A DNA stretch of 64,000 nt from Parcubacteria group bacterium (GCA_039740895.1 JBCLGS010000002.1:258-64257); one strand, 5' to 3'. Positions 4,392 through 49,883 are shown, counted from the stretch's first letter. Notes: generated from the sequence alone by a model not told the origin. A program made the numbers and translations.

Positions 4392-4429
4392 GCTATCCCC
4401 TGAGAGCCTAATTGTGGTAGAATAAAAGT

Positions 4430-4591
4430 ATGGAAATAATCTTCGGAATACTAGCATTTATTTGGATGATAATAGGTTCTATAATTAAGTTTATTATCTA
4501 TATTGCTTACTTCTTTCCTCTAATAGGGGCACGGATTTTAGAATGGGCTAACTTATGGCCGACTACATGGCCATTCGGAATTATTTTATAA
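4430..4591 (+). CDS. possible small hydrophobic protein (53 aa, MEIIFGILAFIWMIIGSIIKFIIYIAYFFPLIGARILEWANLWPTTWPFGIIL)
   Basis: Short ORF found by eye in the 790-bp noncoding stretch upstream of rpoB; single predicted TM helix; no homology evidence. Confidence 0.15.
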   Translation: MEIIFGILAFIWMIIGSIIKFIIYIAYFFPLIGARILEWANLWPTTWPFGIIL

Positions 4592-4771
4592 AAGTTTATT
4601 GCTTATTTTTCTTTCTGCTATTACCCCATATGTGTATTTTAACATTATTTAATAAATAATTGCAAAACCTAACCAGTATCACACTCTTCTCTTTCCTTGT
4701 GGATAACTCACTTTGACATTTTATTACTAACTTGCTAATATAATTAAATTATGGCTTCGGCCTCCGAGAAA

Positions 4772-4799
4772 ATCCGCTTTATGCGGGTTTTCGTTTTAT
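4772..4799. terminator. rho-independent terminator-like hairpin (ATCCGC..GCGGGT + T-run), bidirectional
   Basis: aaaatccgctttatgcgggttttcgtttta immediately 3-prime of the minus-strand 129-aa gene stop (4796). Confidence 0.45.
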
Positions 4800-5185
4800 T
4801 GAGGGAAAAATTCCAAAACTCCTCTGATTATAGATTTAAAATCATCATTTGAGATTGTTCCAACCTTTCTTACAAATCTCTTCGTACTAACAGTTCTAAT
4901 CTGGGTCAAAACAACAAAATATTCATTTTTATCGAAAATAAATTTATAATGAAACTTGTCACTTTTCATCTTAGAAGTTATAGGTAAAACCCAAGTCATT
5001 TGTTTGTTAAACTTTCTCAAGACTAAAGCTGTTCTCTCATATTGATTATTTTTACCATCAATCTCAATTCCGATATTTAACCCGAGTGACATCCACCAAA
5101 TTTCTCTTTCATTAACTCCCAAATTATCAGATTTTTTATCTATTATTTTCTTTAACTTATTCCAACTATCAAAATCTTTTTCCAT
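4796..5185 (-). CDS. MazF/PemK-family mRNA interferase-like toxin
   Basis: 129 aa; EREIWWMSLGLNIGIEIDGKNNQYERTALVL...VLPITS...FVVLTQIRTVSTKRFVRKVGTISNDDFKSIIRGVL follows the MazF/PemK pattern (RGDIW.V.L.P..G.E..G.RP.LV.S......V.P.T......Q.R..D..R); lies 15 bp downstream of lexA in the same operon. Confidence 0.5.
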   Translation of the reverse strand: MEKDFDSWNKLKKIIDKKSDNLGVNEREIWWMSLGLNIGIEIDGKNNQYERTALVLRKFNKQMTWVLPITSKMKSDKFHYKFIFDKNEYFVVLTQIRTVSTKRFVRKVGTISNDDFKSIIRGVLEFFPQ

Positions 5186-5200
5186 TATAGTTAAACAATT

Positions 5201-5781: not shown

Positions 5782-6003
5782 TTAAAATATAAAAACATTA
5801 GAAAGACTAAGTGGTCGACCAAACCACCCAGAGTTTACTTCACGATTTATCTCGTTATCCAAACCTTTGAGACTACAAAGAATAAATTTATGTCTTTTGG
5901 CCTCCCGAATATATGAGAGACCCTTAATGATTTTCTCATCAATCTGATCATTTAAAACTTCTAACTCACTTCTCAATGTTTTTTCTAAATTTTGTTTACT
6001 CAT
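5782..6003 (-). CDS. hypothetical small protein (73 aa), first gene of the lexA operon; possible antitoxin partner of the MazF-like gene
   Basis: ORF ends 5 bp upstream of lexA; no recognisable family; the GAAC-N4-GTTC box lies just upstream of its start. Confidence 0.3.
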   Translation of the reverse strand: MSKQNLEKTLRSELEVLNDQIDEKIIKGLSYIREAKRHKFILCSLKGLDNEINREVNSGWFGRPLSLSNVFIF

Positions 6004-6038
6004 GGTTTTTTGCTGTTATTTATATATAGATAGTATAA

Positions 6039-6054
6039 GTGAACCCAAGTTCAC
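6039..6054. promoter_or_regulatory. putative LexA (SOS, Cheo-type) box GTGAACCCAAGTTCAC overlapping the promoter of the 73aa-lexA-mazF-like operon
   Basis: Perfect palindrome matching the Gram-positive-type SOS box GAAC-N4-GTTC; located about 35 bp upstream of the operon start, adjacent to TTGCTG ... TAGTAT/TATAAG promoter-like hexamers. Confidence 0.5.
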
Positions 6055-6069
6055 TGTCAAGAAAATACT

Positions 6070-6145
6070 GTGGATAAGGGAAACGAAGTGGATAAGGGAA
6101 ACGAAGTGGACACTTATGCATCAAGTACTCTTGAGGCCACTTATG
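6070..6145 (+). repeat. inverted copy (~76 bp, ~1 mismatch) of the tandem-repeat block that forms the C-terminal extension of rpsP (16403-16479)
   Basis: gtggataagggaaacgaagtggataagggaaacgaagtggacacttatgcatcaagtactcttgaggccacttatgc is the reverse complement of the rpsP 3-prime coding repeat; here intergenic with no start codon. Confidence 0.85.
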
Positions 6146-6361
6146 CCTGAAGTAAACTTCAGGCCAGCGAATATAGAAAACAAAAAATCACCTCTCGCAA
6201 GCCCTGTGGTGATTTATTGTTGTCTTACCTAGCTATATTTACTTAACCTTCTTTGGTTTCTTCTTCTCTTTTTTGTGTCCGTCTCCCTTTGCCATATATT
6301 TGTTTGATTAAAATTTATAATTGCACACTAATAAACGAGCATGGATTAATTATATCATCAT

Positions 6362-8038
6362 TTATGATTCAAGAAAAAGTCTAGCCAGTCGTATTTTCAA
6401 ATAACTTGGTTTCTTTTTTTGTTTCTGCAAAATATTATAAACTGGTGACAAAGTTTTTGTTCCTGCTTTTTCAAATGCTGACAAAATATCATCTAGCTCT
6501 GAACGCTTAAACTCACGACGAAGATATGCGAAGTCTGGACACTTGTCTTTTTCATCTTCTAGGATTTTTTCAATATGAGAAACAATTGTTTCTTGTTTCA
6601 ATCCCCTAACTTCAGCGAGTTTCTCAAGTGGCACTTCCAGCCTAAGCATATCTGCTGTAATCTGCTCTGTTGTTTTCTTCAAAAGTTTTTCTTTCTTTTT
6701 TATTTTAACTTTTTCTTCTGGCTCTATTGATTTCAAATATTTTTCTTGTTTTTCACGAAGCTCTGTTTTTAGTATTTCTTTTAATTTTTCCACGGCCTCT
6801 TGTGACATTTTCTGAAACTCTTTGTCATATTCCAAAACCTCTCCGTCCACTTGAAGTGACATATCATTAAACCCCAAAAGTTTCATTCCGTTCAGAGAAC
6901 GAACACGAGATAAAGCCACATATCCCATTCCTTTTACAAACGACTTGGACAAATCCACCTCCATAGCGTCCAGTGACATTCCTTGACTCTTGTGCACGGT
7001 AATAGCCCAGGCTAAGCGAAGCGGAAACTGCGTAATCTCAGCCTTCACTTTTCCATCTTCTTCTATCTGCCATGACTCATGTCTCGCATATATAGTCTTG
7101 CCATTTGTGGTGACTATGACGGGGTCACCGTATGCATTAAAACTATCTACTACTCCGAGCGTTCCGTTCACATATTCACCTTCTTTATCATTTTTGGTAA
7201 ACATCACGCGTGCTCCGATTTTTAAAACTAATTTCTCAGGTGACAAGCAACTTTTTTTCAGTGCTTCAATAATAAAACTTGAACCTCGTGAGGTCATCTC
7301 AAATTGATTTATATCCCCAGGAATTAAATCTAAGTGTCTGCGGTTAATGACATCCACATCTATATTGTGAGTGTGAAGCTTTGTCGGCTTTGCCCCGGAC
7401 TCCGGCTCTTTATTAAATCTAGTTTTTAAAAGTTCAATGGTTTCCTTCGTAACTTTATTCTCGCGAATCTGATTTAATATCGTGAGATATATGTCATCTT
7501 TCTGACGATGTTGTTCGGACAAATGACAAATAGTGAGCTTTGAGTTCTGCCATGAGTCTGCTTTGAAAGCAAATTCACTCTCTGAAATATCGCCTCGCGT
7601 AACAGGTGGGAGTTGAAAAAAATCCCCAGAAAGAATAACTTGCATTCCACCAAAAGGTTTTTCATTTCGTTTGAACTGTCTGCAAATCCATTCAATGAGG
7701 TCCAGTCGGTAATGGTGAAGCATTGAAACTTCGTCAATTATCAAAACTTTTGTTTTTTCAAAACGCTTGTAGAGATACTGTTTCTCCATCATATTTTCAA
7801 TATCATAATCCGTCAGAACATCTCTGATACCGAGCCCAGACCATGAGTGAATAGTCTGACCACCAAGGTGCGTTGCGGCAATACCAGTGGACGCTGTTAC
7901 GGCTACATCCACAGCATTTGATTTCAGATATTTTATATACTCATTTAAGACATGAGTTTTTCCGCTCCCAGCAGGTCCTGTAAGAAAAACATTTTTACCC
8001 AGTTTTAATATATCGAGTGCTTCGCTTTGTAACATCAC
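6362..8038 (-). CDS. Pif1/RecD-family ATP-dependent DNA helicase with C-terminal HTH-like domain
   Basis: 558 aa; Walker A TGPAGSGKTH, DEVSM Walker B, GGMQVILSGDFFQLPPV, and a C-terminal HKSQGMSLD motif typical of AAA_30/UvrD_C_2 (Pif1-like) helicases. Confidence 0.8.
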   Translation of the reverse strand: MMLQSEALDILKLGKNVFLTGPAGSGKTHVLNEYIKYLKSNAVDVAVTASTGIAATHLGGQTIHSWSGLGIRDVLTDYDIENMMEKQYLYKRFEKTKVLIIDEVSMLHHYRLDLIEWICRQFKRNEKPFGGMQVILSGDFFQLPPVTRGDISESEFAFKADSWQNSKLTICHLSEQHRQKDDIYLTILNQIRENKVTKETIELLKTRFNKEPESGAKPTKLHTHNIDVDVINRRHLDLIPGDINQFEMTSRGSSFIIEALKKSCLSPEKLVLKIGARVMFTKNDKEGEYVNGTLGVVDSFNAYGDPVIVTTNGKTIYARHESWQIEEDGKVKAEITQFPLRLAWAITVHKSQGMSLDAMEVDLSKSFVKGMGYVALSRVRSLNGMKLLGFNDMSLQVDGEVLEYDKEFQKMSQEAVEKLKEILKTELREKQEKYLKSIEPEEKVKIKKKEKLLKKTTEQITADMLRLEVPLEKLAEVRGLKQETIVSHIEKILEDEKDKCPDFAYLRREFKRSELDDILSAFEKAGTKTLSPVYNILQKQKKKPSYLKIRLARLFLES

Positions 8039-8074
8039 CCCATTGTACCAGCTCTGTACCTAAATGGACAAATA
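7616..8074. repeat. 459-bp exact direct repeat, copy 1 (helicase 5-prime coding region plus 36 bp of leader); copy 2 at 11681-12134
   Basis: Spot-checked identical sequence; identical 142-aa N-terminal translations in ORFs 6362..8038 and 11660..12103; offset 4065 bp. Confidence 0.9.
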
Positions 8075-8170
8075 AATACTTTGTACAGATTTAATATATG
8101 GTATACATACCTAGCCGACATCTGTTATTAAAGCTCTTCCTATGGAGATATTTTAGAACAATTACTTTTA

Positions 8171-8205
8171 AAATCAAAGGTACCTGACACCGATTCCTGA
8201 CACCG
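8171..8205. promoter_or_regulatory. promoter-proximal motif AAATCAAAGGTACCTGACACC followed by tandem GATTCCTGACACC repeats, upstream of the helicase gene; the same 21-mer recurs at 19311-19331
   Basis: On the minus strand the motif supplies a TTGATT -35 hexamer 16 nt from a TAAAAT -10; the shared 21-mer plus local direct repeats suggest a transcription-factor binding site. Confidence 0.35.
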
Positions 8206-8219
8206 ATTCTCACATAAGT

Positions 8220-9446
8220 TTATACAAGCGGATATTCTCCTTCAAGAAGTTTGTTCGTCACTTCACGCAATTTACTAAGTTTTTCTTTTACAATTTTTTG
8301 TACTATCTTTATATCAATAGATTTTACAGAATTTATGACGACAAATGCTGGATCATCAAGGGGACGATCAATTTCGCTTATCATAAAAACTTCACATGGA
8401 ACTTTTTGCTGTTCAAATATTTGTTGCGCGATATCCCAGGCTGCAACGGAATAAATCTTACCGGCATGATACGATGGATTTTTTCCACTTAATCCTTCAA
8501 TACTGAATGGTCTGCATGAAGAAATAACTCCGCCCAATCTATTCCCTCTGCTAACTTGTCCCTCGTCACCAGATTCAATGCATGATCCAGTGAAGCGGAG
8601 GTACAACATTTCCTTATCGGTGTTATCTCCCGGATTGAGGGTAACTAAGACATTTTTAAATTGAGACCCATCGATTATCTTGTTGATAATGGTGAGAGTT
8701 ACATTGTAATTTTCTTTATATTCAAAAATAGAATGTACATGTGTCGAAAGCTGCGGGATTGAGATGATTAAATTAATCTCTTCTTTTATGCGACAAGCCA
8801 TTATTTTACAATCGGATCCCATCCATGGATATTTCACCCACATATCATCGGAAGTTAAGGTTTTTTCAATATCAAGTACAAGTTTTTCAAGTGGAGTAAA
8901 CGGTGCCCACGCACAACCTACTGCAGTATCATTTGATATCGGATTTGATGACTCCGGCAAATCTTTCAAACTCCGAGGATGAAATCTATGGTGTATTGCC
9001 GAAGTACCACCATTTGCACCATCTATCATTCCACGTGTACTATTTGATGTATTTTCCCACATCACCCGACAATCAGTCAGAAAATTGAAATTTCTTAATT
9101 CCTTTTCTAAAAACTTAGTGGCAGTATTGATAAGCAAATCTCGAAAGTCAATATTTTCATCTCCAATTTTTGGAGTGGCTCTGCCGTTAATGAGAAGTCG
9201 AATCGGTGATCTGAAATTGCCTCCTCCAAATCTTATGTCGCATTTTCCACCCATAAGCGAGAGTTTATCAAACTGATGTCGCAATATTGCTCCATATTTG
9301 TCGCGAGTGAATTTACTGTATGTACGAGAAAAAAGTTCAGCTAACCGATCAGAAAGCGTATCAGGATGTCCACGACCTTTCCGCTCCACAATTTCAAAAT
9401 CATTATCTGCTGGATTTTTTATGTTATAAGTTATATTTACTTTCAT
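8220..9446 (-). CDS. mat: archaeal-type S-adenosylmethionine synthetase (methionine adenosyltransferase)
   Basis: 408 aa; N-terminal ERKGRGHPDTLSDRLAE matches the archaeal MAT signature (ERKGxGHPD); this class is known in CPR genomes. Confidence 0.8.
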   Translation of the reverse strand: MKVNITYNIKNPADNDFEIVERKGRGHPDTLSDRLAELFSRTYSKFTRDKYGAILRHQFDKLSLMGGKCDIRFGGGNFRSPIRLLINGRATPKIGDENIDFRDLLINTATKFLEKELRNFNFLTDCRVMWENTSNSTRGMIDGANGGTSAIHHRFHPRSLKDLPESSNPISNDTAVGCAWAPFTPLEKLVLDIEKTLTSDDMWVKYPWMGSDCKIMACRIKEEINLIISIPQLSTHVHSIFEYKENYNVTLTIINKIIDGSQFKNVLVTLNPGDNTDKEMLYLRFTGSCIESGDEGQVSRGNRLGGVISSCRPFSIEGLSGKNPSYHAGKIYSVAAWDIAQQIFEQQKVPCEVFMISEIDRPLDDPAFVVINSVKSIDIKIVQKIVKEKLSKLREVTNKLLEGEYPLV

Positions 9447-10498
9447 GATGCTGTATTAGTTAATTTCAATCGTTCACTTTCGACAATCCTACCAACTAGC
9501 TCAATTTGATTCTCAGAGGCTTTTGCTCTTTTTTCTTCATTATCAGGTCTAAATTTTATTATTTTTCTTACATCTTTTGAATACAAACTCTTCACATTAT
9601 CCATATCTAATTTTTCTTTTTCTGTCAGTCTAATATTCCAAAGCCTACTGACATTGAGTATAAAGTTTTTTGTTAAATCGTTGTAGTCTACAAATAAACT
9701 CTGATCTGATCCAAAATCACCAGCAATTTTACAAAAAACACCGAGCAGTCTTGCTACATATTCATCTTGACTCATTGTGCGTATAATCGCTACATCTATC
9801 TGCAATAGATTAGAAAAATATTCTATATACAAAGCACGGCTTCTAAGCCATCCCGGTGGTTTTTCCATAACTGACGGAAGCACCTCAAGGCCATAACGAT
9901 GAACAAACATCCATCTCACATCTGGAAATTCTGTAAGAATAAGATTAATAAAAAAGGTGTTCCAACTTCTGAATTTTATAAATACTCGTTCACACATAAC
10001 TGGCGAGCATTTAATTAACATAACCATGGAAGCTCTGAACAATGCCCTTCTATTCTCAGGTGATATTATTAACGCTGGATCCAAAACTGCGTTAATAATA
10101 GTGGGCTCTGATAAGACAAAAAATCTATCGCTCTGGGCAAGCATTTGTGTCATCAAAGTCGAGCCACATCGAGACATGTGAAAAATGAAACCAACCTCCT
10201 TTTTGATTTTTTCGTCCGAATACTCTGATATAAATTCATTTACAGGCGTATAAACGACTCGTTTATCATTTTGATCGTAATGAACAGGGTGCACAAGTAG
10301 TTCATCTTCTTTCGAAAGCTTAATTTCTGACTTTAAAATGTTGAAAGACTTAGCAAGAGAATCTATAAAAAATGGCTCTCTGAAATAAGTCCTTGGTAAC
10401 AGCAAAGATACAACAAATAAACCTTGTTCATTTCTCAACAAATCAACAGGAATTCTAATATTCTCGCTGGTTGTATATTCCTTATTGATATTGGACAT
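9443..10498 (-). CDS. sulfotransferase-family protein (putative)
   Basis: 351 aa; FIFHMSRCGSTLMTQMLA resembles the PAPS-binding P-loop (RSGSTLL) of bacterial Sulfotransfer_3/Stf0-like enzymes; a second motif VHRYGLEVLPS is plausible. Confidence 0.4.
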   Translation of the reverse strand: MSNINKEYTTSENIRIPVDLLRNEQGLFVVSLLLPRTYFREPFFIDSLAKSFNILKSEIKLSKEDELLVHPVHYDQNDKRVVYTPVNEFISEYSDEKIKKEVGFIFHMSRCGSTLMTQMLAQSDRFFVLSEPTIINAVLDPALIISPENRRALFRASMVMLIKCSPVMCERVFIKFRSWNTFFINLILTEFPDVRWMFVHRYGLEVLPSVMEKPPGWLRSRALYIEYFSNLLQIDVAIIRTMSQDEYVARLLGVFCKIAGDFGSDQSLFVDYNDLTKNFILNVSRLWNIRLTEKEKLDMDNVKSLYSKDVRKIIKFRPDNEEKRAKASENQIELVGRIVESERLKLTNTAS

Positions 10499-10509
10499 AA
10501 TAGTTAAGT

Positions 10510-11013
10510 CTATCTAATCTCTTTTAGTACATCTGCCCAGCTTTCTACCCTGGTAACTTTTGGTAAAAACTGTCTATATTCGTCAATCTCTGCTTGATCA
10601 GGTTGATATAAGAACAGATGCGATACGGTTTCAATCATATGACTTAATACCTCAAGACGATCATCAATAAAGTAGGTGATATTATTATCTTTACAAATTT
10701 TGTCTTTTTCATGCCTCTCTCTACAAAAGAACACATTTTTAGGATTAACTCCGGTTCCAGCATAAAAATTATTGTCTCTAAGCCAAGCAAGAATCTTTTC
10801 TTCTGCCCATGGGGTACATTTTGATATTAAGAAAATATTCCCATTAAATTTCGTGTCATTTAATTTTTTGATTACGTTAAACACATCTTCTGCGGCTGGA
10901 ATCGTGGAATAACGCTCTTCGTGCAAGGTTTTGTCGTCTTTGTCAGTAAGACGATGATTGATAATGACATTTCCTATATCAATACCTAATGCTTCATTGT
11001 TTTTTGTAGTCAT
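10510..11013 (-). CDS. hypothetical protein, possible HAD/NT5C-like fold; paralog of 11081..11578 (start taken at internal Met; ORF extends to 11103)
   Basis: Shares LG[IV]D[IL]GNVII, FNGNIF and HF[IV]DDRLEVLSH blocks with the neighbouring gene; the DDR block resembles a HAD motif but the N-terminal DxD is degenerate. Confidence 0.3.
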   Translation of the reverse strand: MTTKNNEALGIDIGNVIINHRLTDKDDKTLHEERYSTIPAAEDVFNVIKKLNDTKFNGNIFLISKCTPWAEEKILAWLRDNNFYAGTGVNPKNVFFCRERHEKDKICKDNNITYFIDDRLEVLSHMIETVSHLFLYQPDQAEIDEYRQFLPKVTRVESWADVLKEIR

Positions 11014-11080
11014 AGTATAATACATTATAAAGTAATTTAATAAAAAAATACAGCCCCCAAAAAAATCTGAGAGGCTGTAA

Positions 11081-11578
11081 CTATCTAAGCAGTAAACGTA
11101 CAATTTCGTTCCACGCGACAGTCTGTTGGACGTGAATGAGAAAATCCTGCTGATACTGCTCGACTTCTTTTTGTTGTGGCCGAAACAGATACAGGTTTCT
11201 CACTTTACCAACAAGGTGACTGAGAACCTCAAGGCGATCATCGACAAAGTGTGTGGCATGATACAGTTCACACACTGACAACTTGTTACGACCATTCTGT
11301 GTTCTTCTCACACAATCTGGAGAGATGCCTGTGCGATTAAAAAAATTGTGCGACTTCAGCCAAGAAACGATTTTTTGGTCGGCAACATCCGAGGAATTAT
11401 AGACCACGAAGATATTGCCATTAAACCGCTCTTGATTTAGACGTAACAAAGCATCAAAGACTCCTGACACGGGTGGAATGATGTTGTAATCACCTGTTTG
11501 AAAGAACTCAGGCGTTGTCCCAAATCCGACATGATCAATGATTACGTTTCCAAGGTCAACACCAAGACATTCTTGCAT
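11081..11578 (-). CDS. hypothetical protein, paralog of 10510..11013 (higher-GC copy)
   Basis: 165 aa with the same three conserved blocks; GC visibly higher than the adjacent paralog. Confidence 0.3.
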   Translation of the reverse strand: MQECLGVDLGNVIIDHVGFGTTPEFFQTGDYNIIPPVSGVFDALLRLNQERFNGNIFVVYNSSDVADQKIVSWLKSHNFFNRTGISPDCVRRTQNGRNKLSVCELYHATHFVDDRLEVLSHLVGKVRNLYLFRPQQKEVEQYQQDFLIHVQQTVAWNEIVRLLLR

Positions 11579-11659
11579 GTGATACCTCCTTTCTGGTTTT
11601 CTGTGTGTATAGTAACATAGCGAATTTGGTATGTAAATGTGTCTTACTTTCGGGTATTT

Positions 11660-12103
11660 CTAGTCAACTAAAATTGACTTAAAAAAATCCCCAGAAAGAA
11701 TAACTTGCATTCCACCAAAAGGTTTTTCATTTCGTTTGAACTGTCTGCAAATCCATTCAATGAGGTCCAGTCGGTAATGGTGAAGCATTGAAACTTCGTC
11801 AATTATCAAAACTTTTGTTTTTTCAAAACGCTTGTAGAGATACTGTTTCTCCATCATATTTTCAATATCATAATCCGTCAGAACATCTCTGATACCGAGC
11901 CCAGACCATGAGTGAATAGTCTGACCACCAAGGTGCGTTGCGGCAATACCAGTGGACGCTGTTACGGCTACATCCACAGCATTTGATTTCAGATATTTTA
12001 TATACTCATTTAAGACATGAGTTTTTCCGCTCCCAGCAGGTCCTGTAAGAAAAACATTTTTACCCAGTTTTAATATATCGAGTGCTTCGCTTTGTAACAT
12101 CAC
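11660..12103 (-). pseudogene. truncated duplicate of the Pif1-like helicase 5-prime end (first 142 codons, then frame runs into a stop)
   Basis: Lies within direct-repeat copy 2 (11681-12134); identical N-terminal 142 aa to the full-length gene; lacks the rest of the helicase. Confidence 0.8.
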
Positions 12104-12266
12104 CCCATTGTACCAGCTCTGTACCTAAATGGACAAATACTGCACTGGGTTAGTATACAATTGACACTGATTCTTAAATTAAGCACTCAAGAGAGGTTAC
12201 TTTTTTTGCTACCTGTGAATAGGTTGATGTTCCCTCTTAAAAAAAATCTCAAAAGATTTAAACAAA

Positions 12267-12300
12267 GAAAAGTCCCACCGTTCGCATTTCGCTACTAAGT
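12267..12300 (-). terminator. rho-independent terminator for the M16 peptidase gene (AGTCCCAC..GTGGGACT stem, T-run on minus strand)
   Basis: Hairpin 25 bp downstream of the stop at 12326, followed by ttttctttgttt on the minus strand. Confidence 0.5.
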
Positions 12301-12325
12301 GGGACTTAGATTCCATAGTTAATCC

Positions 12326-13576
12326 TTACGGATGTGCTATGAAAGTGTACTGCTGTTCTGGGTTAAGAAACTTGACTGCTTCCTCCATTTGGTCAAAAGT
12401 AACTTTGTGCAGATTGTCCCATACCTCCTGCATCGGAATGATTCGATGATGACCAATCAACTCCTCGGCAGATTCTCCACACAGATCCGCTCCAGAATGA
12501 TCGATCATTAAACACTGCTTGATGCAAGACTCGAGGTTGCGATCAAAGAGATCGTGTCGTGATGAAACCATCGAGATGCACTTGCGTACAAGATCGTTGA
12601 TGTATGGCGTAGCTTCTGGACTGATCTGTCCCACGATTTGATACTCGCACACATCTTGCCAATCTTGCAGATTGATACCGATACTGTATGCGAGTCCGCG
12701 TTTCTCGCGAACCTCATCAAACAGAATCTTCCCAAGAACCAAATTGAACACTCTGCGTGCTTGTTGAGGAAAATCTAACGGCCACGCCCATACTGCCCTG
12801 TAGCCCGTCTGGTCAACTTTGAAGTTGACATGATCAGACATTTTCACCGTTCGCGATTGTTCCATCGGGATTGCAAATTGATTGAACATGGGAGGAATAG
12901 GATTTCTCCGCCCCTCCTTTTTCTTTCCGAACGGACTCTGTTCAAGCTCAGCAATTACTTCTTTGGTTGTGAGACCTCCGAGAATTACCAAGCTTATGTT
13001 TGCTGGCGTGTAGTGCTCGTCGTAGAAACCTTGTAGGTCAGTTTCCATTGCCGAAAAAAAACCCTCAGGACGACCGAGTGGGCGATTATATGTTTCGAGA
13101 CGGTGCCCTTTGAAAAGCGATCTCCGTATTGCCATGTCCCATTCCAGTTTTTTCAGAAACGGGTACCCTTGATTAAACTCACAGTAGATGACTTTACGCT
13201 CTCTATCGATGTCTTTTTCCAGACGAGCCTCGAGAAGCATTGAACCGAAAATTGAAACTACTTCTCGAAATGTTGGCAGGTCTGCTGGAACAGCAAACTT
13301 GTATTGAGTCGAGAGATATGAGGTACTACCGTATTCGGCACGACCACCAACACTCTCTATAAACTGCTTCACCCAGTCGTGTGTACGATCGGGAATGTTT
13401 TGGCTGACACAGTGTTCAACGAAATGAGCGAGACCTGGCATAGTAACCTGATCCTCGCGAGCTCCGCTGTGAACGACTATTTCCATTCTGATCCATGGGC
13501 GATCCCATGACATCGAATGAACTTCAAGACCGTTCGGAAGAATGCACTTAGTGAATGCTGCATATGGATCGTACAT
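12326..13576 (-). CDS. M16-family (pitrilysin/insulinase-like) zinc peptidase
   Basis: 416 aa; inverted zincin motif HFVEH (HxxEH) near the N-terminus; GC clearly above the window average. Confidence 0.75.
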   Translation of the reverse strand: MYDPYAAFTKCILPNGLEVHSMSWDRPWIRMEIVVHSGAREDQVTMPGLAHFVEHCVSQNIPDRTHDWVKQFIESVGGRAEYGSTSYLSTQYKFAVPADLPTFREVVSIFGSMLLEARLEKDIDRERKVIYCEFNQGYPFLKKLEWDMAIRRSLFKGHRLETYNRPLGRPEGFFSAMETDLQGFYDEHYTPANISLVILGGLTTKEVIAELEQSPFGKKKEGRRNPIPPMFNQFAIPMEQSRTVKMSDHVNFKVDQTGYRAVWAWPLDFPQQARRVFNLVLGKILFDEVREKRGLAYSIGINLQDWQDVCEYQIVGQISPEATPYINDLVRKCISMVSSRHDLFDRNLESCIKQCLMIDHSGADLCGESAEELIGHHRIIPMQEVWDNLHKVTFDQMEEAVKFLNPEQQYTFIAHP

Positions 13577-13758
13577 TTTTTACTCTCCTATCAAAGAACT
13601 TTTAGCTTCGTTGCCATCATAACACACTAAGTATACCTTTGTCAAAACCTTTTCAGGAAGTGTGGACACTTACACTGTGGATAAGCAAGTTTCCAGGAGG
13701 GTACCCTCCGTGGACCCCTATAATTCTTTAACTTTCAAATCACCAAGCGAATCAATTT

Positions 13759-14259
13759 CTATAGGCATGATTTCTTTACAAATGTAAAAATTTCCTTTAT
13801 TTTCTCAGATGTTTCTTCTAGTTGGTTATCAAAAAGAAGATAATCTTTTAAATCTTCATAAGGAACCCATTTGTATGACCTGATTTCACCTTCTTGTAAT
13901 TTAATTTCGTTATCATTACCAATAAATTTAAATCCAAAAAAGTGACGCTCCATACCATCATATTCAATACCCTCACGATTTAATTTTCCTAGTTTAAATG
14001 TAATTTGTAAAGACTCTTTACTTTTACCAATTAAGTCTAGATTATTTTTAGTTATACCGAGTTCTTCTTCTATTTCTCTATAAACAGCATCTTCAAGTGT
14101 TTCTTTTAATTCTAGACCACCGCCTGGAATTGCGAAAAAATGAGTAATAAAAGCTTCTAAATTGACTAGCAAAAATTCGTTTTTGTTGTTAATTATTAAA
14201 GTTGAAACTCCCTTACGAAATTTAAGAATATTTTTTTCTGGTTGTTCAGATTTTTCCAT
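13759..14259 (-). CDS. NUDIX hydrolase
   Basis: Nudix box GGGLELKETLEDAVYREIEEELGI. Confidence 0.7.
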   Translation of the reverse strand: MEKSEQPEKNILKFRKGVSTLIINNKNEFLLVNLEAFITHFFAIPGGGLELKETLEDAVYREIEEELGITKNNLDLIGKSKESLQITFKLGKLNREGIEYDGMERHFFGFKFIGNDNEIKLQEGEIRSYKWVPYEDLKDYLLFDNQLEETSEKIKEIFTFVKKSCL

Positions 14260-14282
14260 ATTATTTTTTCTTTTTAAAAGAT

Positions 14283-14573
14283 TTAAAGTTTATAAGCATC
14301 TTTTCTATGCTTAACTCGTAAAACTATGAGAATATTTATAGAACCTTTATCATTTATTTCAAACAAAACTCGATAATCTCCTATTCTATATCTACATATA
14401 TTAGTAAACACACCAGAAAGTTGCTTAGCTCGAATGAGAGGATTTTTTAGTTCGCTGTTCTCTTTTATTTTTGCAACAATTCGAAGAGCTATTTTTTTAT
14501 CAATCTTTTTTAAATCGGAAAGCGCGTGCTCTGTATATTTAAGATTAAATATCCCAATCATATTAACTTGCAT
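14283..14573 (-). CDS. RelE/ParE-family type II toxin
   Basis: 96 aa; RIGDYRVLFEI...ILIVLRVKHRKDAYK pattern; start codon 1 nt after the upstream antitoxin stop. Confidence 0.6.
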   Translation of the reverse strand: MQVNMIGIFNLKYTEHALSDLKKIDKKIALRIVAKIKENSELKNPLIRAKQLSGVFTNICRYRIGDYRVLFEINDKGSINILIVLRVKHRKDAYKL

Positions 14574-14574
14574 A

Positions 14575-14817
14575 TTAACTTAATTGTGCCAATACTTCTT
14601 TATGTGAATAGAGTCGTCCTTTCTCTACATCTTTTTTAGCATCAATAATATCCTCAATTATACTATTAAGATTCACATTTTTCGCAAAAGGCTTAATCTC
14701 AAAGAGTGGAGTATTACGATTCATAATAATAAATCGCTCTTTCCCAAGTTGAGCATTCTCTGAATATTTAGCTATGTTTTGACGAAAATCTTTAATATTT
14801 ATGAATTTTGTAGTCAT
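14575..14817 (-). CDS. Phd/YefM-family antitoxin (start at internal Met MTTKF; the ORF as tracked extends into trmD)
   Basis: TKFINIKDFRQNIAKYSENAQLGKERFIIMNRNTPLFEIKP matches the Phd_YefM fold pattern; translationally coupled to the RelE-like gene. Confidence 0.6.
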   Translation of the reverse strand: MTTKFINIKDFRQNIAKYSENAQLGKERFIIMNRNTPLFEIKPFAKNVNLNSIIEDIIDAKKDVEKGRLYSHKEVLAQLS

Positions 14818-14863
14818 AGGTTTAGTGTATCTTAAGTGTACACCAAAGTCAAATACCAGCGTT

Positions 14864-15553
14864 TTACTTTTTCTCTTTCCAAGCTTCAATCTTCTTATGG
14901 TCGCCAGACAAAAGTACTTTTGGCACACGATATTTTTTACCTTTATATTCAAAAACTTCTGGTCTTGTATAAACATTATGAGAGGAGGCGCGTGACTCTT
15001 CTAGAGAATTAAAATTGCCGAGGACTCCTTCTATCTGGCGAGCCATGCAGTCTATAACAATCATCGCTGGCAATTCTCCGCCAGTTAGCACAAATGGACC
15101 GACAGAAATATTTTCGGTTTTAAAAATTTTTTGAACACGAGCATCAATACCTTCATACCTGCCGGAGATTAAAATAATGTCGGTGAATTTATGCACAGTC
15201 TTTTTTGCGTATTCAGTATCAAATTGTTTTCCACCAGGAGAGAACCATATAATCTTTACTCTCTTTGTGTCAAAAGATACCTTTGACACTTTTGAATTTG
15301 TAACTTTTTTTCTTTTTTCAATAATTTTCAGAGCCGCTTCTATTGCTTTGACCACAGGCAATGCCTGAATGACCATACCCGGACCTCCGCTATATGGCTT
15401 TTGGTCAATGTGTCTGAATTTGTTGTCAGAAAAATCTCGAGGATTATAAAATTTAACCTTGATTTTCTTATCCTCTATGGCTCGCGACATAATAGACTCG
15501 CCTAGGTACGAGTCAAATGCTACCGGAAACAGTGTTACTATATGAAATATCAT
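14864..15553 (-). CDS. trmD: tRNA (guanine37-N1)-methyltransferase
   Basis: 229 aa; SPOUT-knot blocks (ISGRYEGIDARV, GPFVLTGGELPAMIVIDC); classic position downstream of rpsP and the KH protein. Confidence 0.9.
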   Translation of the reverse strand: MIFHIVTLFPVAFDSYLGESIMSRAIEDKKIKVKFYNPRDFSDNKFRHIDQKPYSGGPGMVIQALPVVKAIEAALKIIEKRKKVTNSKVSKVSFDTKRVKIIWFSPGGKQFDTEYAKKTVHKFTDIILISGRYEGIDARVQKIFKTENISVGPFVLTGGELPAMIVIDCMARQIEGVLGNFNSLEESRASSHNVYTRPEVFEYKGKKYRVPKVLLSGDHKKIEAWKEKK

Positions 15554-15610: not shown

Positions 15611-15690
15611 CCTTACAGAAACAGTACACCTTTCACATTTTGATTACAAAATGCTCAAGGTCTTGCGAAGTGATAACATCACTTCTCACC
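15611..15690 (+). repeat. family A hairpin repeat, copy 1 (ccttacagNNNcagtacacctttcaca...gaagtgataacatcacttctcacc)
   Basis: ~80 bp unit with two internal hairpins; copy 2 at 15728-15807, inverted copy 3 at 22596-22674. Confidence 0.8.
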
Positions 15691-15727
15691 TTACAATGAG
15701 TAAGGCTTGAATTATTTTTATCGTCCG

Positions 15728-15807
15728 CCTTACAGGCGCAGTACACCTTTCACACTTTGACTACAAAGTATTCAAGGTTTTACGAAGTGATAAAATCACT
15801 TCTCACC
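15728..15807 (+). repeat. family A hairpin repeat, copy 2
   Basis: About 85% identical to copy 1, tandem with a ~37 bp spacer, inside the rpsP-KH-trmD operon spacer. Confidence 0.8.
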
Positions 15808-15908
15808 TAGAACTACACTCAAATCTGAATTAAAAACACAATAACACATTTTTTATAAAAAGAAAAGTCCTGATTTCTCAGAACTTTTTTTTTAAATATT
15901 TATTTAAA

Positions 15909-16293: not shown

Positions 16294-16803
16294 TTACGCA
16301 ATAGTTTCCTCCACAGATGGAGCAACGACTGGGACATCTTGAGCTGGAGTGACTGGCGCCTCAGGATTACCTGATGCGTAAGTGGCCTCAAGAGTACTTG
16401 ATGCATAAGTGGCCTCAAGAGTACTTGATGCATAAGTGTCCACTTCGTTTCCCTTATCCACTTCGTTTCCCTTATCCGCTTCGCTTTCCTTAGCTGGAGC
16501 AGTTACAACAGGAACTTCTTTTACAATGGCATTTTTCAAAGGAAGAACATTGACTTTCTTTCCTTCTATAATTTTCCTACTAACCAAAAGATTATGAACG
16601 GTGCCTGAAGTTTGTGCTCCTTGTAACATCCAATAATTTATTCTCTCTGCATTGAAGACAGCTTTCTCTCCGCTTCTTGAATCATAGTTACCCAAAATCT
16701 CAAGTGATTTACCACTTTTTGTAGAGTTCTTTGAATCAGTTAGAACAAGTCTAAAAACTGGTTCGTGTTTTCGTCCTACTCTTTGTAATCGTATTTTTAA
16801 CAT
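16294..16803 (-). CDS. rpsP: 30S ribosomal protein S16 with ~80-aa repetitive C-terminal extension
   Basis: Start at internal Met MLKIRLQRVGRKHEPVFRLVLTD (canonical S16 N-terminus); the tracked ORF runs further upstream antisense to rnr, which is probably not translated. C-terminus carries tandem DKGNEV x2 and TYASSTLEA x2 repeats. Confidence 0.85.
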   Translation of the reverse strand: MLKIRLQRVGRKHEPVFRLVLTDSKNSTKSGKSLEILGNYDSRSGEKAVFNAERINYWMLQGAQTSGTVHNLLVSRKIIEGKKVNVLPLKNAIVKEVPVVTAPAKESEADKGNEVDKGNEVDTYASSTLEATYASSTLEATYASGNPEAPVTPAQDVPVVAPSVEETIA

Positions 16804-19310: not shown

Positions 19311-19331
19311 AAATCAAAGGTACCTGACACC
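19311..19331. promoter_or_regulatory. second copy of the AAATCAAAGGTACCTGACACC motif, followed by GGTATAGG-type direct repeats, upstream of the 102-aa gene
   Basis: 21/21 identity with 8171-8191; both sit 5-prime of minus-strand genes. Confidence 0.35.
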
Positions 19332-19390
19332 TATACCACCCCTATACCCAAATGTCTCACCTATATCCAAATTGGTATATACATAAAAGT

Positions 19391-22583: not shown

Positions 22584-22745
22584 AGCCAAGGTCGAGTGAG
22601 AAATGATATTATCATTTCGCAAGACCTTGAGCATTTTGTAATCAAAATGTGAAAGGTGTACTGCTCCTGTAAGGAGGAAAATTAAAAAATGATTAGAGCC
22701 ATACTTAGTGGTATGGTGAGAATTATTTTTGTTTTTTAGACGATG
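22584..22745 (+). repeat. composite intergenic element: family B structured repeat (copy 1) with a nested inverted family A insertion (22596-22674)
   Basis: ccaaggtcg lead-in, then inverted family A, then the gagccatacttagtggtatggtgag inner hairpin flanked by an AT-rich outer stem. Confidence 0.75.
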
Positions 22746-46980: not shown

Positions 46981-48558
46981 ATGTCAAACCTCACAAAAAA
47001 GCAAAAACAAGTCTTCGACTTTATAAATACCTATATTGCCGAAAATGGCATATCTCCGACCATAGAAGAAATACGAAAAAAACTGAAACTCAAAGCAGTT
47101 TCTACTATTCACGAACATATCAATTCCCTCAGAGATAAGGGATATCTCTCAAAGTCTGAAAATTCAGCTAGAAGTCTATTGTTAAAGAAAGAAATCAAGT
47201 CTGTTGTTGAGATTCCTATTGTTGGGCGAATTACTGCGGGATATCCAATAGAAGCGATTGAAAATACAGAAGACACAATTTCCATAATCAATCCTAGTAT
47301 AAAAACTGCCGAGGGATACTATGCTTTGCGTGTTGTTGGGGACAGTATGATTGGTGAAGGAATTTTTGATAACGATATCGTGATAATCAAAAAACAATCG
47401 GTGGCTGAAAATGGACAAACAGTGGTTGCTATTATTGACGATAATGAAGCAACTTTAAAGAAATTGTATCGAGATAAAAATAGATTTAGATTGGAACCTA
47501 GAAATCAATCGATGCTTCCTTTTTACAGAAAAGAAGTAGAGGTCAGAGGTGTTGTCGTTCAAATAATAAGTAATATAAATAATGAAACAGTAGATATTCC
47601 TTCTAAAAAGACTAAGCATGGATTCAAAACAATCGATCTTTTTGCTGGAGTCGGTGGTATACGATTAGGTTTTGAAAATGCCGGATTCAAAACAGTTTTT
47701 GCAAATGATTTTGAGCCAAAATGTAAAGACACTTATGACCTTAATTTTAAAGATTCAAAGTTGGTTATTGAGGATATTAGAAAAATCGGGATTGACGATT
47801 TACCAAAGTTTGATTTCTTGCTCGGAGGATTCCCTTGTCAGGCTTTTTCTATTGCAGGATATAGGCAAGGTTTTAATGATGAGAAAGGCAGAGGCAATTT
47901 ATTTTTTGATATTGTAAGAATTCTTGATGCACGAAAACCTGAAGGTTTTCTACTTGAAAATGTAAAAAACTTGAAAAGCCATGATGGAGGTAAAACATTT
48001 CAAATAATTCTAGACACCTTAGAAAGTCTTGGCTATTATGTCAAAACAAAAGTTTTAAATAGTATGGAGTACGGAAATATCCCGCAAAATAGAGAGCGTA
48101 TTTATATCATAGGTTTTAGAAATAAAGACTATTCAGATAAATTTGAGTTTCCTAGCCCAGTAAAATTAACTGTAAAAATTACTGATTTATTAGAGAAAAA
48201 TGTACCTGAAAAATACTATTACAATGGCAAGCCATTGTTCGAAAAATTAAAAGGCTCTATAAAAGAAGAAGGAAAAGTATATCAATGGCGTAGGCAGTAT
48301 GTCCGAGAAAACAAAAGAGGTGTTTGTCCGACACTAACCGCAAATATGGGTACAGGTGGACATAATGTGCCAATCATAAAAGATAAAAAAGGTATCAGAA
48401 AATTAACCCCGCTTGAATGTGCACGAATACAAGGTTTTCCAAGTAGTTATAAAATACCTAAACTTGCAGATTCTGCTTTATATAAGCAATTTGGGAACTC
48501 TGTTAGTGTCCCAGTTATTGAAGCTGTCGGAAAACAGATGATGAAAGCAATGGAATAA
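46981..48558 (+). CDS. fusion protein: full LexA-like repressor (wHTH + S24 self-cleaving peptidase) joined to a C5 cytosine-specific DNA methyltransferase
   Basis: Residues 1-~200: LexA DNA-binding domain (QVFDFINTYIAENGISPTIEEIRKKL), cleavage-site region GRITAGYPIEA, catalytic GDSM Ser and TLKKLY Lys, C-terminal VRGVVVQIIS. Residues ~215-525: MTase motif I DLFAGVGG, IV GFPCQAFS, VI ENV, VIII QNRERIY, X GNSVSVPV. Single uninterrupted frame verified across the junction (47521-47700). Confidence 0.85.
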   Translation: MSNLTKKQKQVFDFINTYIAENGISPTIEEIRKKLKLKAVSTIHEHINSLRDKGYLSKSENSARSLLLKKEIKSVVEIPIVGRITAGYPIEAIENTEDTISIINPSIKTAEGYYALRVVGDSMIGEGIFDNDIVIIKKQSVAENGQTVVAIIDDNEATLKKLYRDKNRFRLEPRNQSMLPFYRKEVEVRGVVVQIISNINNETVDIPSKKTKHGFKTIDLFAGVGGIRLGFENAGFKTVFANDFEPKCKDTYDLNFKDSKLVIEDIRKIGIDDLPKFDFLLGGFPCQAFSIAGYRQGFNDEKGRGNLFFDIVRILDARKPEGFLLENVKNLKSHDGGKTFQIILDTLESLGYYVKTKVLNSMEYGNIPQNRERIYIIGFRNKDYSDKFEFPSPVKLTVKITDLLEKNVPEKYYYNGKPLFEKLKGSIKEEGKVYQWRRQYVRENKRGVCPTLTANMGTGGHNVPIIKDKKGIRKLTPLECARIQGFPSSYKIPKLADSALYKQFGNSVSVPVIEAVGKQMMKAME

Positions 48559-48563
48559 GAAAA

Positions 48564-49655
48564 TTATTTTATATATTTCCTTATATTATCAAGCATAACA
48601 TTCTCCTTATTTGGGATTTTATCTATAATAGATTTATGCATAAAATATTCACCATTTTTTGAACTAGACCTATCTAATAACTGGAACTTGATGATATAGG
48701 TTTTATTTGTTTCTAATTCTATGTCATTTATTTTTGCCTTACCTATTGTATATATTGTAATTGAGCTTTTACTGTTTTTCAAAACCTGAATTTTGTCTGC
48801 ATTTTCAACATATATATCAATTAATTTGTGCTTTCTATTGTTATCCAATTTATTTTCTTTCCAACTATATAAATTATCTATTTTTTTATTTACCCAATCT
48901 GAAAAAGACGCGGTTCGTGGTAGTATTCTTGGTGTTCGAGTTTCGTTTATTCCCTTTATGTAAAATGGACTTTCTCCTTCATTGCATAAGTTGGAATACT
49001 GCATAAAATCACTCGCTAAACAAACTGTAATAAGTCTCAGGGAGCCTAAATTCGTGTTATCCCGTCTAATCTTTGTAACTGATGATAGATCTTTATCTAC
49101 ATTTGTCTTTATAAAAACACTGTCGTCCATTTTTAATTTATCATAAACATCTTCACTTATAACTGTTTTCTCAAAAAAAGGCAGTAAATAATCACTATCA
49201 AGATCTGTCTCAACCATTACAAGATATTGCTTGTCGTAACCTTGATTTCTCAAACTAACCATATACTGTCCTTTTTTGAATGATTTAACTTCAATTTGCG
49301 GAGCATTATCTAAGGCACACCATTTATTCACATACTCGACAAATGGTATTGCCTTTGTTCCAATTTTTACACCCAGAACATCTGGGGCAATACCAGATTT
49401 TTTAGGGTTATATTCATAATAATCAGATATAACTTCTAGATTATCTGCTATTTTAGGAAGAAAATATTTATTAAAAATAATACTTTCAGGAATGATATTA
49501 ATCCAACGATCAAATACGCCTCCAATATAATCGCTTTTCCCACTAAGACCCCCGTACATTCTGCCTCGCTGAGCCATTGAGCAGACAAAATAGATGTATG
49601 GAACGACATCTTGTTTACTGATTATAATTTTATTGATTTTTGGCATCATTTTCAT
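48564..49655 (-). CDS. putative type II restriction endonuclease cognate to the adjacent C5-MTase (hypothetical protein by sequence)
   Basis: 363 aa; convergent with the MTase gene and 5 bp from it, the typical R-M arrangement; candidate PD...EVK catalytic residues (IAPDV ... LDNAPQIEVK); no family-level similarity recognised. Confidence 0.4.
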   Translation of the reverse strand: MKMMPKINKIIISKQDVVPYIYFVCSMAQRGRMYGGLSGKSDYIGGVFDRWINIIPESIIFNKYFLPKIADNLEVISDYYEYNPKKSGIAPDVLGVKIGTKAIPFVEYVNKWCALDNAPQIEVKSFKKGQYMVSLRNQGYDKQYLVMVETDLDSDYLLPFFEKTVISEDVYDKLKMDDSVFIKTNVDKDLSSVTKIRRDNTNLGSLRLITVCLASDFMQYSNLCNEGESPFYIKGINETRTPRILPRTASFSDWVNKKIDNLYSWKENKLDNNRKHKLIDIYVENADKIQVLKNSKSSITIYTIGKAKINDIELETNKTYIIKFQLLDRSSSKNGEYFMHKSIIDKIPNKENVMLDNIRKYIK

Positions 49656-49753
49656 ATTACTTAACGAAATAGTCTAAAGGCTTTTTGTAAAGTTTTGCGA
49701 ATTCTTTCAACTGTAAAACATCAAATCGTCTTTATCCTGATTCTATTTTTTGG

Positions 49754-49822
49754 CTGCGGGACTTGGGGTCGAACCAAGATTCACGCTTTCAGAGAGCGTT
49801 TGCCTACCATTAGCAGATCCCG
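49754..49822 (-). tRNA. tRNA-Gln (anticodon CUG)
   Basis: Cloverleaf: acceptor GCGGGAT/GTCCCGC, anticodon stem ACGCT/AGCGT with loop CTCTGAA (CUG), T-arm CTTGG-TTCGACC-CCAAG; no encoded CCA. Confidence 0.7.
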
Positions 49823-49883
49823 CAATATTTTATTATCAAACTTACTAATCCCCCTCTATTTTAAGTAATATTTAGTTGCGTTA

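Follow-up and report, generated by a model that had tools for sequence, protein, structure and literature searches.

A duplicated pif1 5' end in an accessory island of a Parcubacteria genome as a candidate scar of homology-anchored illegitimate recombination

In a 64,000-nucleotide stretch of a metagenome-assembled genome (MAG) of a Parcubacteria group bacterium (GCA_039740895.1, JBCLGS010000002.1:258-64257; hereafter the window, meaning the whole stretch that was analysed), the promoter and first 141 codons of pif1, a gene for a Pif1-family helicase, occur twice as exact direct repeats. The two copies bracket four genes and lie in a 6.8-kb accessory tract that fills the slot between the core genes trmD and pif1. 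On balance, we favour the view that this duplication would be the scar of homology-anchored illegitimate recombination between variants of the island, as opposed to the work of a mobile element. The simplest class of explanation is that two slot versions with pif1 in common recombined, because one edge of the repeat marks the end of homology between variants and the other is a microhomology joint.

A seed-and-extend search, followed by direct base-by-base comparison, established that positions 7616-8074 (copy 1, R1) and 11681-12139 (copy 2, R2) are 100% identical over 459 bp, in direct orientation and offset by 4,065 bp. A perfect 459-mer cannot have arisen by chance, and the window holds no comparable repeat, the next longest spanning 70-121 nt at 65-97% identity. 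The boundaries are sharp, since the 100-bp flanks outside the two ends match at only 25% and 20%, which is the random level. Read in gene orientation (all genes between ~4.8 and 16 kb lie on the minus strand), the repeat runs from 36 nt before the GTG at 8038 through codon 141. The absence of any difference in 459 bp places an upper bound of ~0.65% (95%) on the divergence of the two copies, versus 10 differences in 458 positions between the same pif1 stretch and that of the closest relative, L040; the mismatch profile against L040 has no step at the repeat boundary. Perfect identity reflects either a very recent event or homogenisation by gene conversion. The original prediction, made from the window alone, had described a perfect 459-bp direct repeat with copies 4,065 bp apart, bracketing genes for an S-adenosylmethionine (SAM) synthetase (MAT), a sulfotransferase and two paralogous proteins, and had proposed a recent origin. 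All of this agrees with our analysis, with the provisos that the sulfotransferase assignment is weak and that the copies may be homogenised rather than young. Its details needed correction: the second copy had been ended at 12134, 5 bp short of its actual end at 12139, and 142 codons had been counted as repeated where there are 141 from the GTG (140 from the ATG chosen by NCBI).

The full-length gene belongs to the Pif1 family by its matches to PIF1 (E = 4e-37) and Pif1_2B_dom (E = 1.6e-5) and by the motifs GPAGSGKT, LIIDEVSM and GDFFQLPPV in its translation. Orthologs of this helicase number in the thousands in Patescibacteria and occur in Patescibacteria/Parcubacteria MAGs. The truncated copy keeps Walker A (GPAGSGKT) and Walker B (LIIDEVSM) and is cut inside GDFFQLPPV, with nothing of the helicase after GDFF. 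A truncated open reading frame (ORF) of 147 amino acids had been correctly foreseen; its last six residues, KSILVD, are an in-frame read-through into the flank and not the six out-of-frame codons originally described. Similarly, the 36-bp stretch upstream of the start codon does lie inside the repeat, as had been stated, but is more than the leader it was taken for: it holds the whole core promoter. The same -35 and -10 elements stand at equal spacing upstream of the orthologs in four relatives (L001, L002, L003 and L040), the promoter ending ~6 nt before the start codon. Because the 36 nt constitute the core promoter, a complete promoter stands on both copies. Intact pif1 should thus retain its own promoter, and the truncated copy would be transcribed from an identical one, toward the bracketed genes in the order parB, parA, sulfotransferase-like gene and MAT; though promoter-bearing, the truncated copy is probably inert. 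Control of the pif1 promoter by LexA was considered and rejected, the window's only GAACN4GTTC box being that of the lexA operon promoter. We also rejected a stretch close behind trmD as a third, diverged version of the pif1 promoter, its local alignment score falling at the 87th percentile of window-wide controls.

The gene order trmD ... pif1 - 73-amino-acid ORF - lexA is conserved across relatives, and the gap between trmD and pif1 varies. In 16 relatives, this gap measures 24 bp (L039), 45 bp (L040) or 0.6-4.3 kb (the 14 others, which are more distant), and its contents differ from one relative to the next (ABC-transporter pairs, MBL-fold proteins or genes of unknown kind). The slot of the window is occupied by 6.8 kb, with copy 2 in the middle of the tract, and the DNA at 8075-14860 is missing at the same site from L039 and L040, the two closest relatives. 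Comparison with closely related genomes, suggested earlier as a check, thus uncovered an empty site in which trmD abuts pif1. L040 is very close to the genome studied here (97.5% amino acid identity for Pif1; 99.4% identity over 4.4 kb of DNA on the rpoB side), and its homology jumps from window position 14861, in trmD, to 8073, in the pif1 promoter, or equally to 12138 (L040 positions 1263|1267). Because this homology passes directly from trmD to the pif1 promoter, the whole tract between them is accessory.

The geometry of the empty site bears on the position of the repeat edge. The trmD stop codon of L040 lies ~7 nt from the pif1 -35 element, and in L039 the -35 element is inside trmD; since the two nearly touch or overlap, any insertion that spares both genes must land almost exactly at the promoter edge. 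In both copies, the promoter-side edge of the repeat lies no more than 1-2 nt from where L040 homology ends. Three unlike upstream sequences, namely the trmD stop in L040, a spacer termed U at copy 2 and a spacer termed V at copy 1, reach the promoter within 1-2 nt of TA|TTTGTCC. Such a coincidence is expected if the repeat is bounded where two island variants cease to be homologous. Identity to L040 drops to 85% in trmD, 96% in pif1 and 89.5% in the lexA region, compared with 99.4-99.5% in the backbone. This raised divergence of the core genes beside the slot fits repeated recombination at the flanks of a hotspot; turnover by recombination in flanking core genes has been described for hotspots free of mobile elements (PMC5635113). 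L040 remained the nearest relative across the genome, metagenome and viral collections scanned, which yielded no relative carrying a second pif1 fragment, and exact-protein look-ups of the window's genes returned no independent assembly of the strain.

The four bracketed genes are collinear with part of a larger Parcubacteria gene cluster, with 77% nucleotide identity over 3.4 kb to one representative (L051) and further examples in L043-L050. In its native form, this cluster always has an APS-kinase-like gene after MAT and stands in unrelated contexts, for example next to HisRS; the recovered sequence around it contains neither pif1 nor trmD. Homology to the native cluster ends at 8213, right after the ATG of the kinase gene, and is followed by a stop codon, the 138 nt of V and copy 1. 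Because homology stops one codon into the next gene, the cargo is a fragment of a foreign cluster. Its sulfotransferase-like assignment is weak (Sulfotransfer_3 at 25.5 bits, below the 27-bit cutoff). The products of parA and parB share 36-39% identity, and a HAD fold is confidently predicted for ParB by an alignment-based model (pLDDT 94; a single-sequence prediction with pLDDT 36 was not used), with Foldseek matches to deoxyribonucleotidase-like and heptose-bisphosphate phosphatase structures. The HAD/sulfotransferase-like/MAT/APS-kinase-like cluster looks like a small-molecule pathway, perhaps SAM- or nucleotide-related, and PADLOC assigned no defence system to the cargo. In some genomes, the cluster also contains Fe-ADH_2, histidine phosphatase, AdoMet decarboxylase and Nudix genes.

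Base composition does not delimit the acquired DNA. With 43% GC against 33% in its partner parA, parB nevertheless belongs with the bracketed cluster, and upstream of copy 2 the GC content spans 28-46%, with the M16 peptidase gene at 46% and the rest of that part of the island at 28-29%. The higher-GC block at 11081-13600 that had been proposed as a unit thus dissolves into parB, the repeat and the unrelated M16 gene. Nor is the copy 2 junction the edge of foreign DNA, as accessory DNA lies on both sides of it and not on the far side alone. The original interpretation is therefore partly supported: it was right that foreign DNA had recombined in, inasmuch as 8075-14860 is missing from the two closest relatives, and it is largely right apart from the GC argument, with the proposed entry via a helicase homolog in need of refinement. 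The joint between pif1 and the cargo is an oligo-T microhomology with the cargo's native upstream sequence, which points to illegitimate joining and homologous recombination in pif1, and not to a helicase homolog carried on the foreign DNA.

For this joint, J2, the native sequence upstream of parB is available from two short contigs of other metagenomes (L041 and L042), whose parB genes are 83-91% identical in nucleotide sequence. J2 reads ...CTGGGGATTTTTTT|AAGTCAATTTT, intact pif1 reads ...CTGGGGATTTTTTT|CAACTCC and the native parB upstream sequence reads ...TTCGGATTTGGATTTTTTTT|AAGTCAATTTT. Depending on the alignment, pif1 and the native parB upstream sequence share T7 ungapped (7 nt) or, with a 1-nt slip in the T run, GGAT7 (10 nt), within the 3-10 nt of microhomology joints. 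The T7 of pif1 is the sole T run of at least 6 in the 1.7-kb pif1 region, and the native sequence has T8 at that very point, where the run forms the tail of a GC-rich terminator hairpin. Such a configuration is typical of illegitimate joining through microhomology. A longer match of 40 nt around J2, which takes in GGAATGC, was discarded as not significant, 5% of random windows scoring equally, and only the T-run match was used. Further upstream of parB, positions 1-525 of L042 are GC-rich and ORF-free, with many inverted repeats (for example, GGCGGTGGTGAGGCGAGGG / CCCTCGCCTCGCCACC) and no Rfam match at gathering thresholds; Rfam and tRNA scans likewise found nothing in this region or in and near the island of the window.

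Under the reading that we favour, the pif1 promoter would originally have stood directly after trmD, and the slot would later have been filled with accessory DNA in this lineage. Two slot versions, ...M16-U|pif1 and ...parB-parA-sulfotransferase-like-MAT-V|pif1, would then have been joined in series. At the illegitimate joint, the oligo-T run at pif1 codons 138-141 would have annealed to the oligo-T run natively preceding parB; the other joint would be ordinary homologous recombination in shared sequence, either in pif1 itself or on the trmD and M16 side. We infer this crossover from the sequence available as an anchor (the repeat itself and trmD) and from the repeat edge, which is the edge of L040 homology. 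Two routes can be envisioned. A linear fragment from a sibling strain may have been taken up and joined by homology-facilitated illegitimate recombination, or a 4,065-bp circle, made of the cargo and the pif1 5' end and already closed at the oligo-T microhomology, may have entered by Campbell-type integration. Either would leave the pif1 promoter and first 141 codons twice, with one pif1 intact and one truncated. Homology-facilitated illegitimate recombination with 3-10-bp joints is known in transformable bacteria (PMC6382021), and natural competence has been shown in Saccharibacteria (PMC10633639). The repeat, the empty site in relatives, the variable slot, the microhomology joint and the lack of mobility genes are seen directly, and the two parental variants, the uptake of DNA and the side that supplied the homologous anchor are inferred.

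Several observations weigh against it. Competence has been demonstrated for Saccharibacteria and not for this lineage, and neither parental variant (U|pif1 or V|pif1 alone) occurs in any database searched, the nearest genomes having the empty site or being at least 25% diverged. The identity of the 459-bp copies calls for an identical donor and recipient or for later gene conversion, yet the slot's flanks otherwise show the highest divergence in the region. All the evidence comes from a single MAG contig without read support. Finally, the window has just two instances of the motif GAT(7-8)AAG, one at J2 and the other 96 nt upstream of copy 2, so that U and copy 2 together look like a ~550-nt insert in the oligo-T site of a once-contiguous M16-parB island. 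A second oligo-T site in this position requires that an earlier step be added to the simplest two-variant model, or else suggests a template switch within one genome.

In the latter scenario, an intragenomic templated insertion by template switching, akin to microhomology-mediated break-induced replication (MMBIR), would have acted on a contiguous island (M16 - oligo-T site - parB ... MAT - V - pif1), copying ~550 nt (U and the pif1 5' end) into the oligo-T site and using the T-run microhomology for the switch back. This accounts naturally for the oligo-T motif on both sides of U and copy 2, for the left oligo-T copy having 17 of 18 positions in common with the sequence natively upstream of parB and for the perfect identity of the repeats, which would both come from one genome. 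Against it, U is not the present upstream flank of pif1 (V is) and occurs nowhere else in the window, so that at least one template must have come from outside the window or from another strain; copying would have had to begin, by coincidence, exactly at the boundary between island and promoter, and the joint between U and copy 2 has no microhomology. BLAST of both upstream flanks against all relatives did not single out either one as ancestral. We consider a template switch credible but unlikely. A rather unlikely explanation, in our estimate, is that the assembly mis-resolved a repeat-cargo-repeat loop, the underlying DNA being an M16-U-pif1 chromosome plus a 4,065-bp circle, a tandem array of more than one cargo unit, or two strain variants merged into one path. 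The source is a 66-kb metagenome-assembled contig, an exact repeat of 459 bp exceeds short reads and typical k-mers, the truncated ORF is found in no second assembly (its 90% cluster has one member), and the contig of L040 itself breaks ~0.5 kb upstream of trmD, ~0.6 kb from the slot. Linkage through the repeat is thus ambiguous on the assembly alone. By contrast, the 7-10-nt overlap at J2 is far too short for an assembler to create, so a molecule with the cargo joined to pif1 codon 141 must exist. A self-replicating circle is in turn unlikely, given that the unit lacks both a replication gene and any meaningful similarity to plasmids or phages, and the region contains no Ns or other signs of scaffolding.

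Direct repeats around a discrete set of genes beside a core gene, with the full-length gene left intact, also recall an integrative or transposable element that duplicates its target or restores a gene end through att-type repeats. This we regard as highly improbable. Neither the unit nor the window's ORFs of at least 150 amino acids yielded an integrase, transposase or relaxase in Pfam, NCBIfam and PADLOC scans, and the ends of the unit have no terminal inverted repeats. Neither in nor beside the unit is there the integrase or recombinase of an att-type site-specific element, and a 459-bp duplication is far beyond the target duplications of transposases and long for att cores. Nor does the unit resemble a plasmid, as it encodes only MAT, the sulfotransferase-like protein, two HAD-fold proteins and the helicase fragment, with no replication or partition genes. 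The cargo is, moreover, a cut piece of a metabolic cluster that ends one codon into its next gene.

Recombination between island variants, the reading favoured here, leads to a further idea that we consider quite doubtful, namely that the promoter-bearing 5' end of pif1 may be a reusable, recombinase-free docking site at which incoming pif1-anchored DNA is captured serially at the same nucleotide. Serial capture at this point is conceivable because pif1 is common to every strain and the trmD-pif1 spacer is only a few nucleotides long. If true, docking at pif1 would build composite islands whose captured genes could be driven by duplicated promoter fragments, an integron-like outcome reached by transformation, RecA and microhomology alone in never-cultured Parcubacteria.

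Table 1. Features of the pif1 repeat, its cargo and the trmD-pif1 slot (positions in the window).
Feature	Position	Strand	Evidence or remark
Full-length Pif1-family SF1B helicase, 558 amino acids from GTG (557 in the NCBI call, P0001), C-terminal HTH_40	6362..8038	-	PIF1 E = 4e-37, Pif1_2B, HTH_40
Repeat copy R1: pif1 core promoter and codons 1-141, continuous with the full-length gene	7616..8074	-	Exact identity with 11681-12139
pif1 promoter TTGTCC-18-TACAAT (TG-extended) inside R1	8042..8071	-	Identical copy at 12107-12136 in R2
Spacer V, between cargo and R1	8075..8212	-	Holds 13-nt tandem GAATCGGTGTCAG x2
Whole 6.8-kb accessory tract in the trmD-pif1 slot	8075..14860	-	Not in closest relatives; comparison with L040 and L039
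Archaeal-type S-adenosylmethionine synthetase (MAT)	8220..9446	-	Pfam E = 3e-90
Sulfotransferase-like protein	9443..10498	-	Weak Pfam match; always beside MAT in relatives
parA-like paralog, probable start near 11013 (~167 amino acids)	10510..11103	-	HAD fold by homology to parB
parB-like gene, 165 amino acids, first cargo gene	11081..11578	-	HAD fold, atypical motif I (DLGN); own conserved promoter 11609-11637
Truncated pif1 ORF, 147 amino acids (141 shared residues + KSILVD)	11660..12103	-	146-amino-acid gene in the NCBI record (P0122)
Joint J2: GGATTTTTTT of pif1 fused to AAG-TCAATTTT, native parB upstream sequence	11678..11690	-	L041/L042 read TTTGGATTTTTTTTAAGTCAATTTT
Repeat copy R2: promoter and pif1 codons 1-141, ends at oligo-T run	11681..12139	-	Exact identity with R1
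Spacer U, immediately upstream of R2	12140..12235	-	No match in the window or any fetched locus
TTTGAGATTTTTTTTAAG, second copy of the oligo-T site natively preceding parB	12236..12253	-	17/18 identical to L041/L042
Other half of island: M16 peptidase 12326-13576; Nudix 13759-14259; RelE-type toxin 14283-14573; antitoxin 14575-14817	12326..14817	-	Missing in L039 and L040
trmD, core gene at the far side of the slot	14864..15553	-	85% nucleotide identity to L040, versus 99.5% just beyond

The spacers share a motif, GAATC(G/A)GTGTCA(GG), which occurs in tandem in V (8183-8209) and once in U (12162-12175; 12/13 identical) and may serve as a binding site for a regulator or represent a short repeat. 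A stretch of 21 nt of V (GTGTCAGGTACCTTTGATTTT) recurs exactly at 19311-19331 (within a wider stretch at 19311-19336), downstream of a DUF3267 gene.

The surroundings of the slot contain repeats of several other kinds. Inverted repeats of 95 nt at 6072-6166 and 16383-16477, 95% complementary and 10.2 kb apart, bracket the whole pif1-island-trmD tract; they consist of 27-nt tandem units containing the DnaA-box-like TTATCCAC, and L040 has a copy between pif1 and the 73-amino-acid ORF. DnaA-box counts over the whole window revealed no significant enrichment. Intergenic elements of ~81-90 nt with an internal hairpin (GAAGTGATAACATCACTTC) are found at 15611-15691, 15728-15808 and, inverted, at 22596-22682, as well as at 3111-3175 of L040. 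They stand in tandem upstream of trmD, precisely where identity to L040 falls from 99.5% to 85%, and L040 has one fewer upstream of trmD and an extra one downstream of pif1. The elements may be small mobile repeats or may mark recombination breakpoints. At 4401-5196, an 800-bp segment with a MazF/PemK-like ORF of 129 amino acids (4796-5185) is missing from L040, which has 66 bp there, and constitutes a second small indel, bordering the diverged tract. The conserved 73-amino-acid ORF that precedes lexA (5782-6052) has a promoter with a Cheo-type LexA box, GAACCCAAGTTC (6041-6052), between its -35 and -10 elements; L039, L040, L001 and L002 all conserve this box, with a TTATCCACA motif just upstream in each.

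Otherwise the window consists of core chromosome (rpoB, lexA, trmD, RNase R, SMC, RNase III, NusB, DnaE, GyrB, tRNA synthetases, DnaB and RecR). It also includes, at 46981-48558 on the plus strand, a 525-amino-acid fusion of a complete LexA (DNA-binding domain and S24 peptidase, residues 1-193) to a C-5 cytosine DNA methyltransferase (residues 215-521, E = 2.6e-95), an unusual combination of self-cleaving repressor and methylase. This gene is followed by a convergent 363-amino-acid ORF without Pfam match (48564-49655, minus strand), possibly a restriction enzyme, and by tRNA-Gln (49751-49824).

Patescibacteria are almost all uncultured, and the gain of accessory genes in their tiny genomes is known mainly by inference. 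A junction defined at the nucleotide level, combined with a sister genome that has the empty site, the cargo's native context, the oligo-T microhomology joint and the duplicated homologous anchor, provides direct sequence evidence for the acquisition of genes without the help of mobile elements. DNA uptake with recombination at a hotspot flanked by core genes is the likely route. Through RecA-dependent exchange between the two copies, the four genes should be lost, leaving M16-U-pif1, or be amplified; this had been foreseen in the original prediction and is a sound expectation from the repeat structure. The unit of MAT, sulfotransferase-like and two HAD-fold proteins should thus be unstable in copy number, and the structure matters for binning, for coverage-based analyses and for the annotation of the 146-amino-acid 'AAA ATPase' fragment as a gene.

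What we describe is a well-resolved example of a known process and not a new system or type of element. Homology-facilitated illegitimate recombination has been reported in the transformation of Acinetobacter baylyi, Streptococcus pneumoniae and Pseudomonas stutzeri (de Vries & Wackernagel 2002, as summarised in PMC6382021). Similar to that process, the arrangement studied here combines one homologous anchor with one joint of 3-10 nt of microhomology and involves no mobile-element functions. It differs in that the process is deduced from a single genome instead of being observed, and in that the joint falls inside the 5' part of the anchor gene, so that 459 bp are duplicated where recipient DNA would simply be replaced. 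The joints of homology-facilitated illegitimate recombination are usually reported to be GC-rich, and the microhomology here is an A/T homopolymer. As in Campbell (single-crossover) integrants and duplication-amplification units, long identical direct repeats surround a unit with a period of 4,065 bp, one gene copy is truncated and one intact, and RecA-dependent loop-out or amplification is predicted; unlike Campbell integrants, the putative circle carries no replication or selection function. The closest parallel in genomic setting is offered by mobile-element-free hotspots of horizontal gene transfer (Oliveira et al. 2017, PMC5635113), which share with the trmD-pif1 slot a position between core genes, cargo that differs from relative to relative, a lack of mobility genes, and raised divergence or recombination in the flanks. 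The flanks of such hotspots include recombination- and repair-type genes (PMC5635113), and the flank here is a helicase of that kind. In the model of Oliveira et al. (PMC5635113), hotspots turn over by double homologous recombination that leaves no scar, whereas the slot described here displays one illegitimate joint and a visible duplication.

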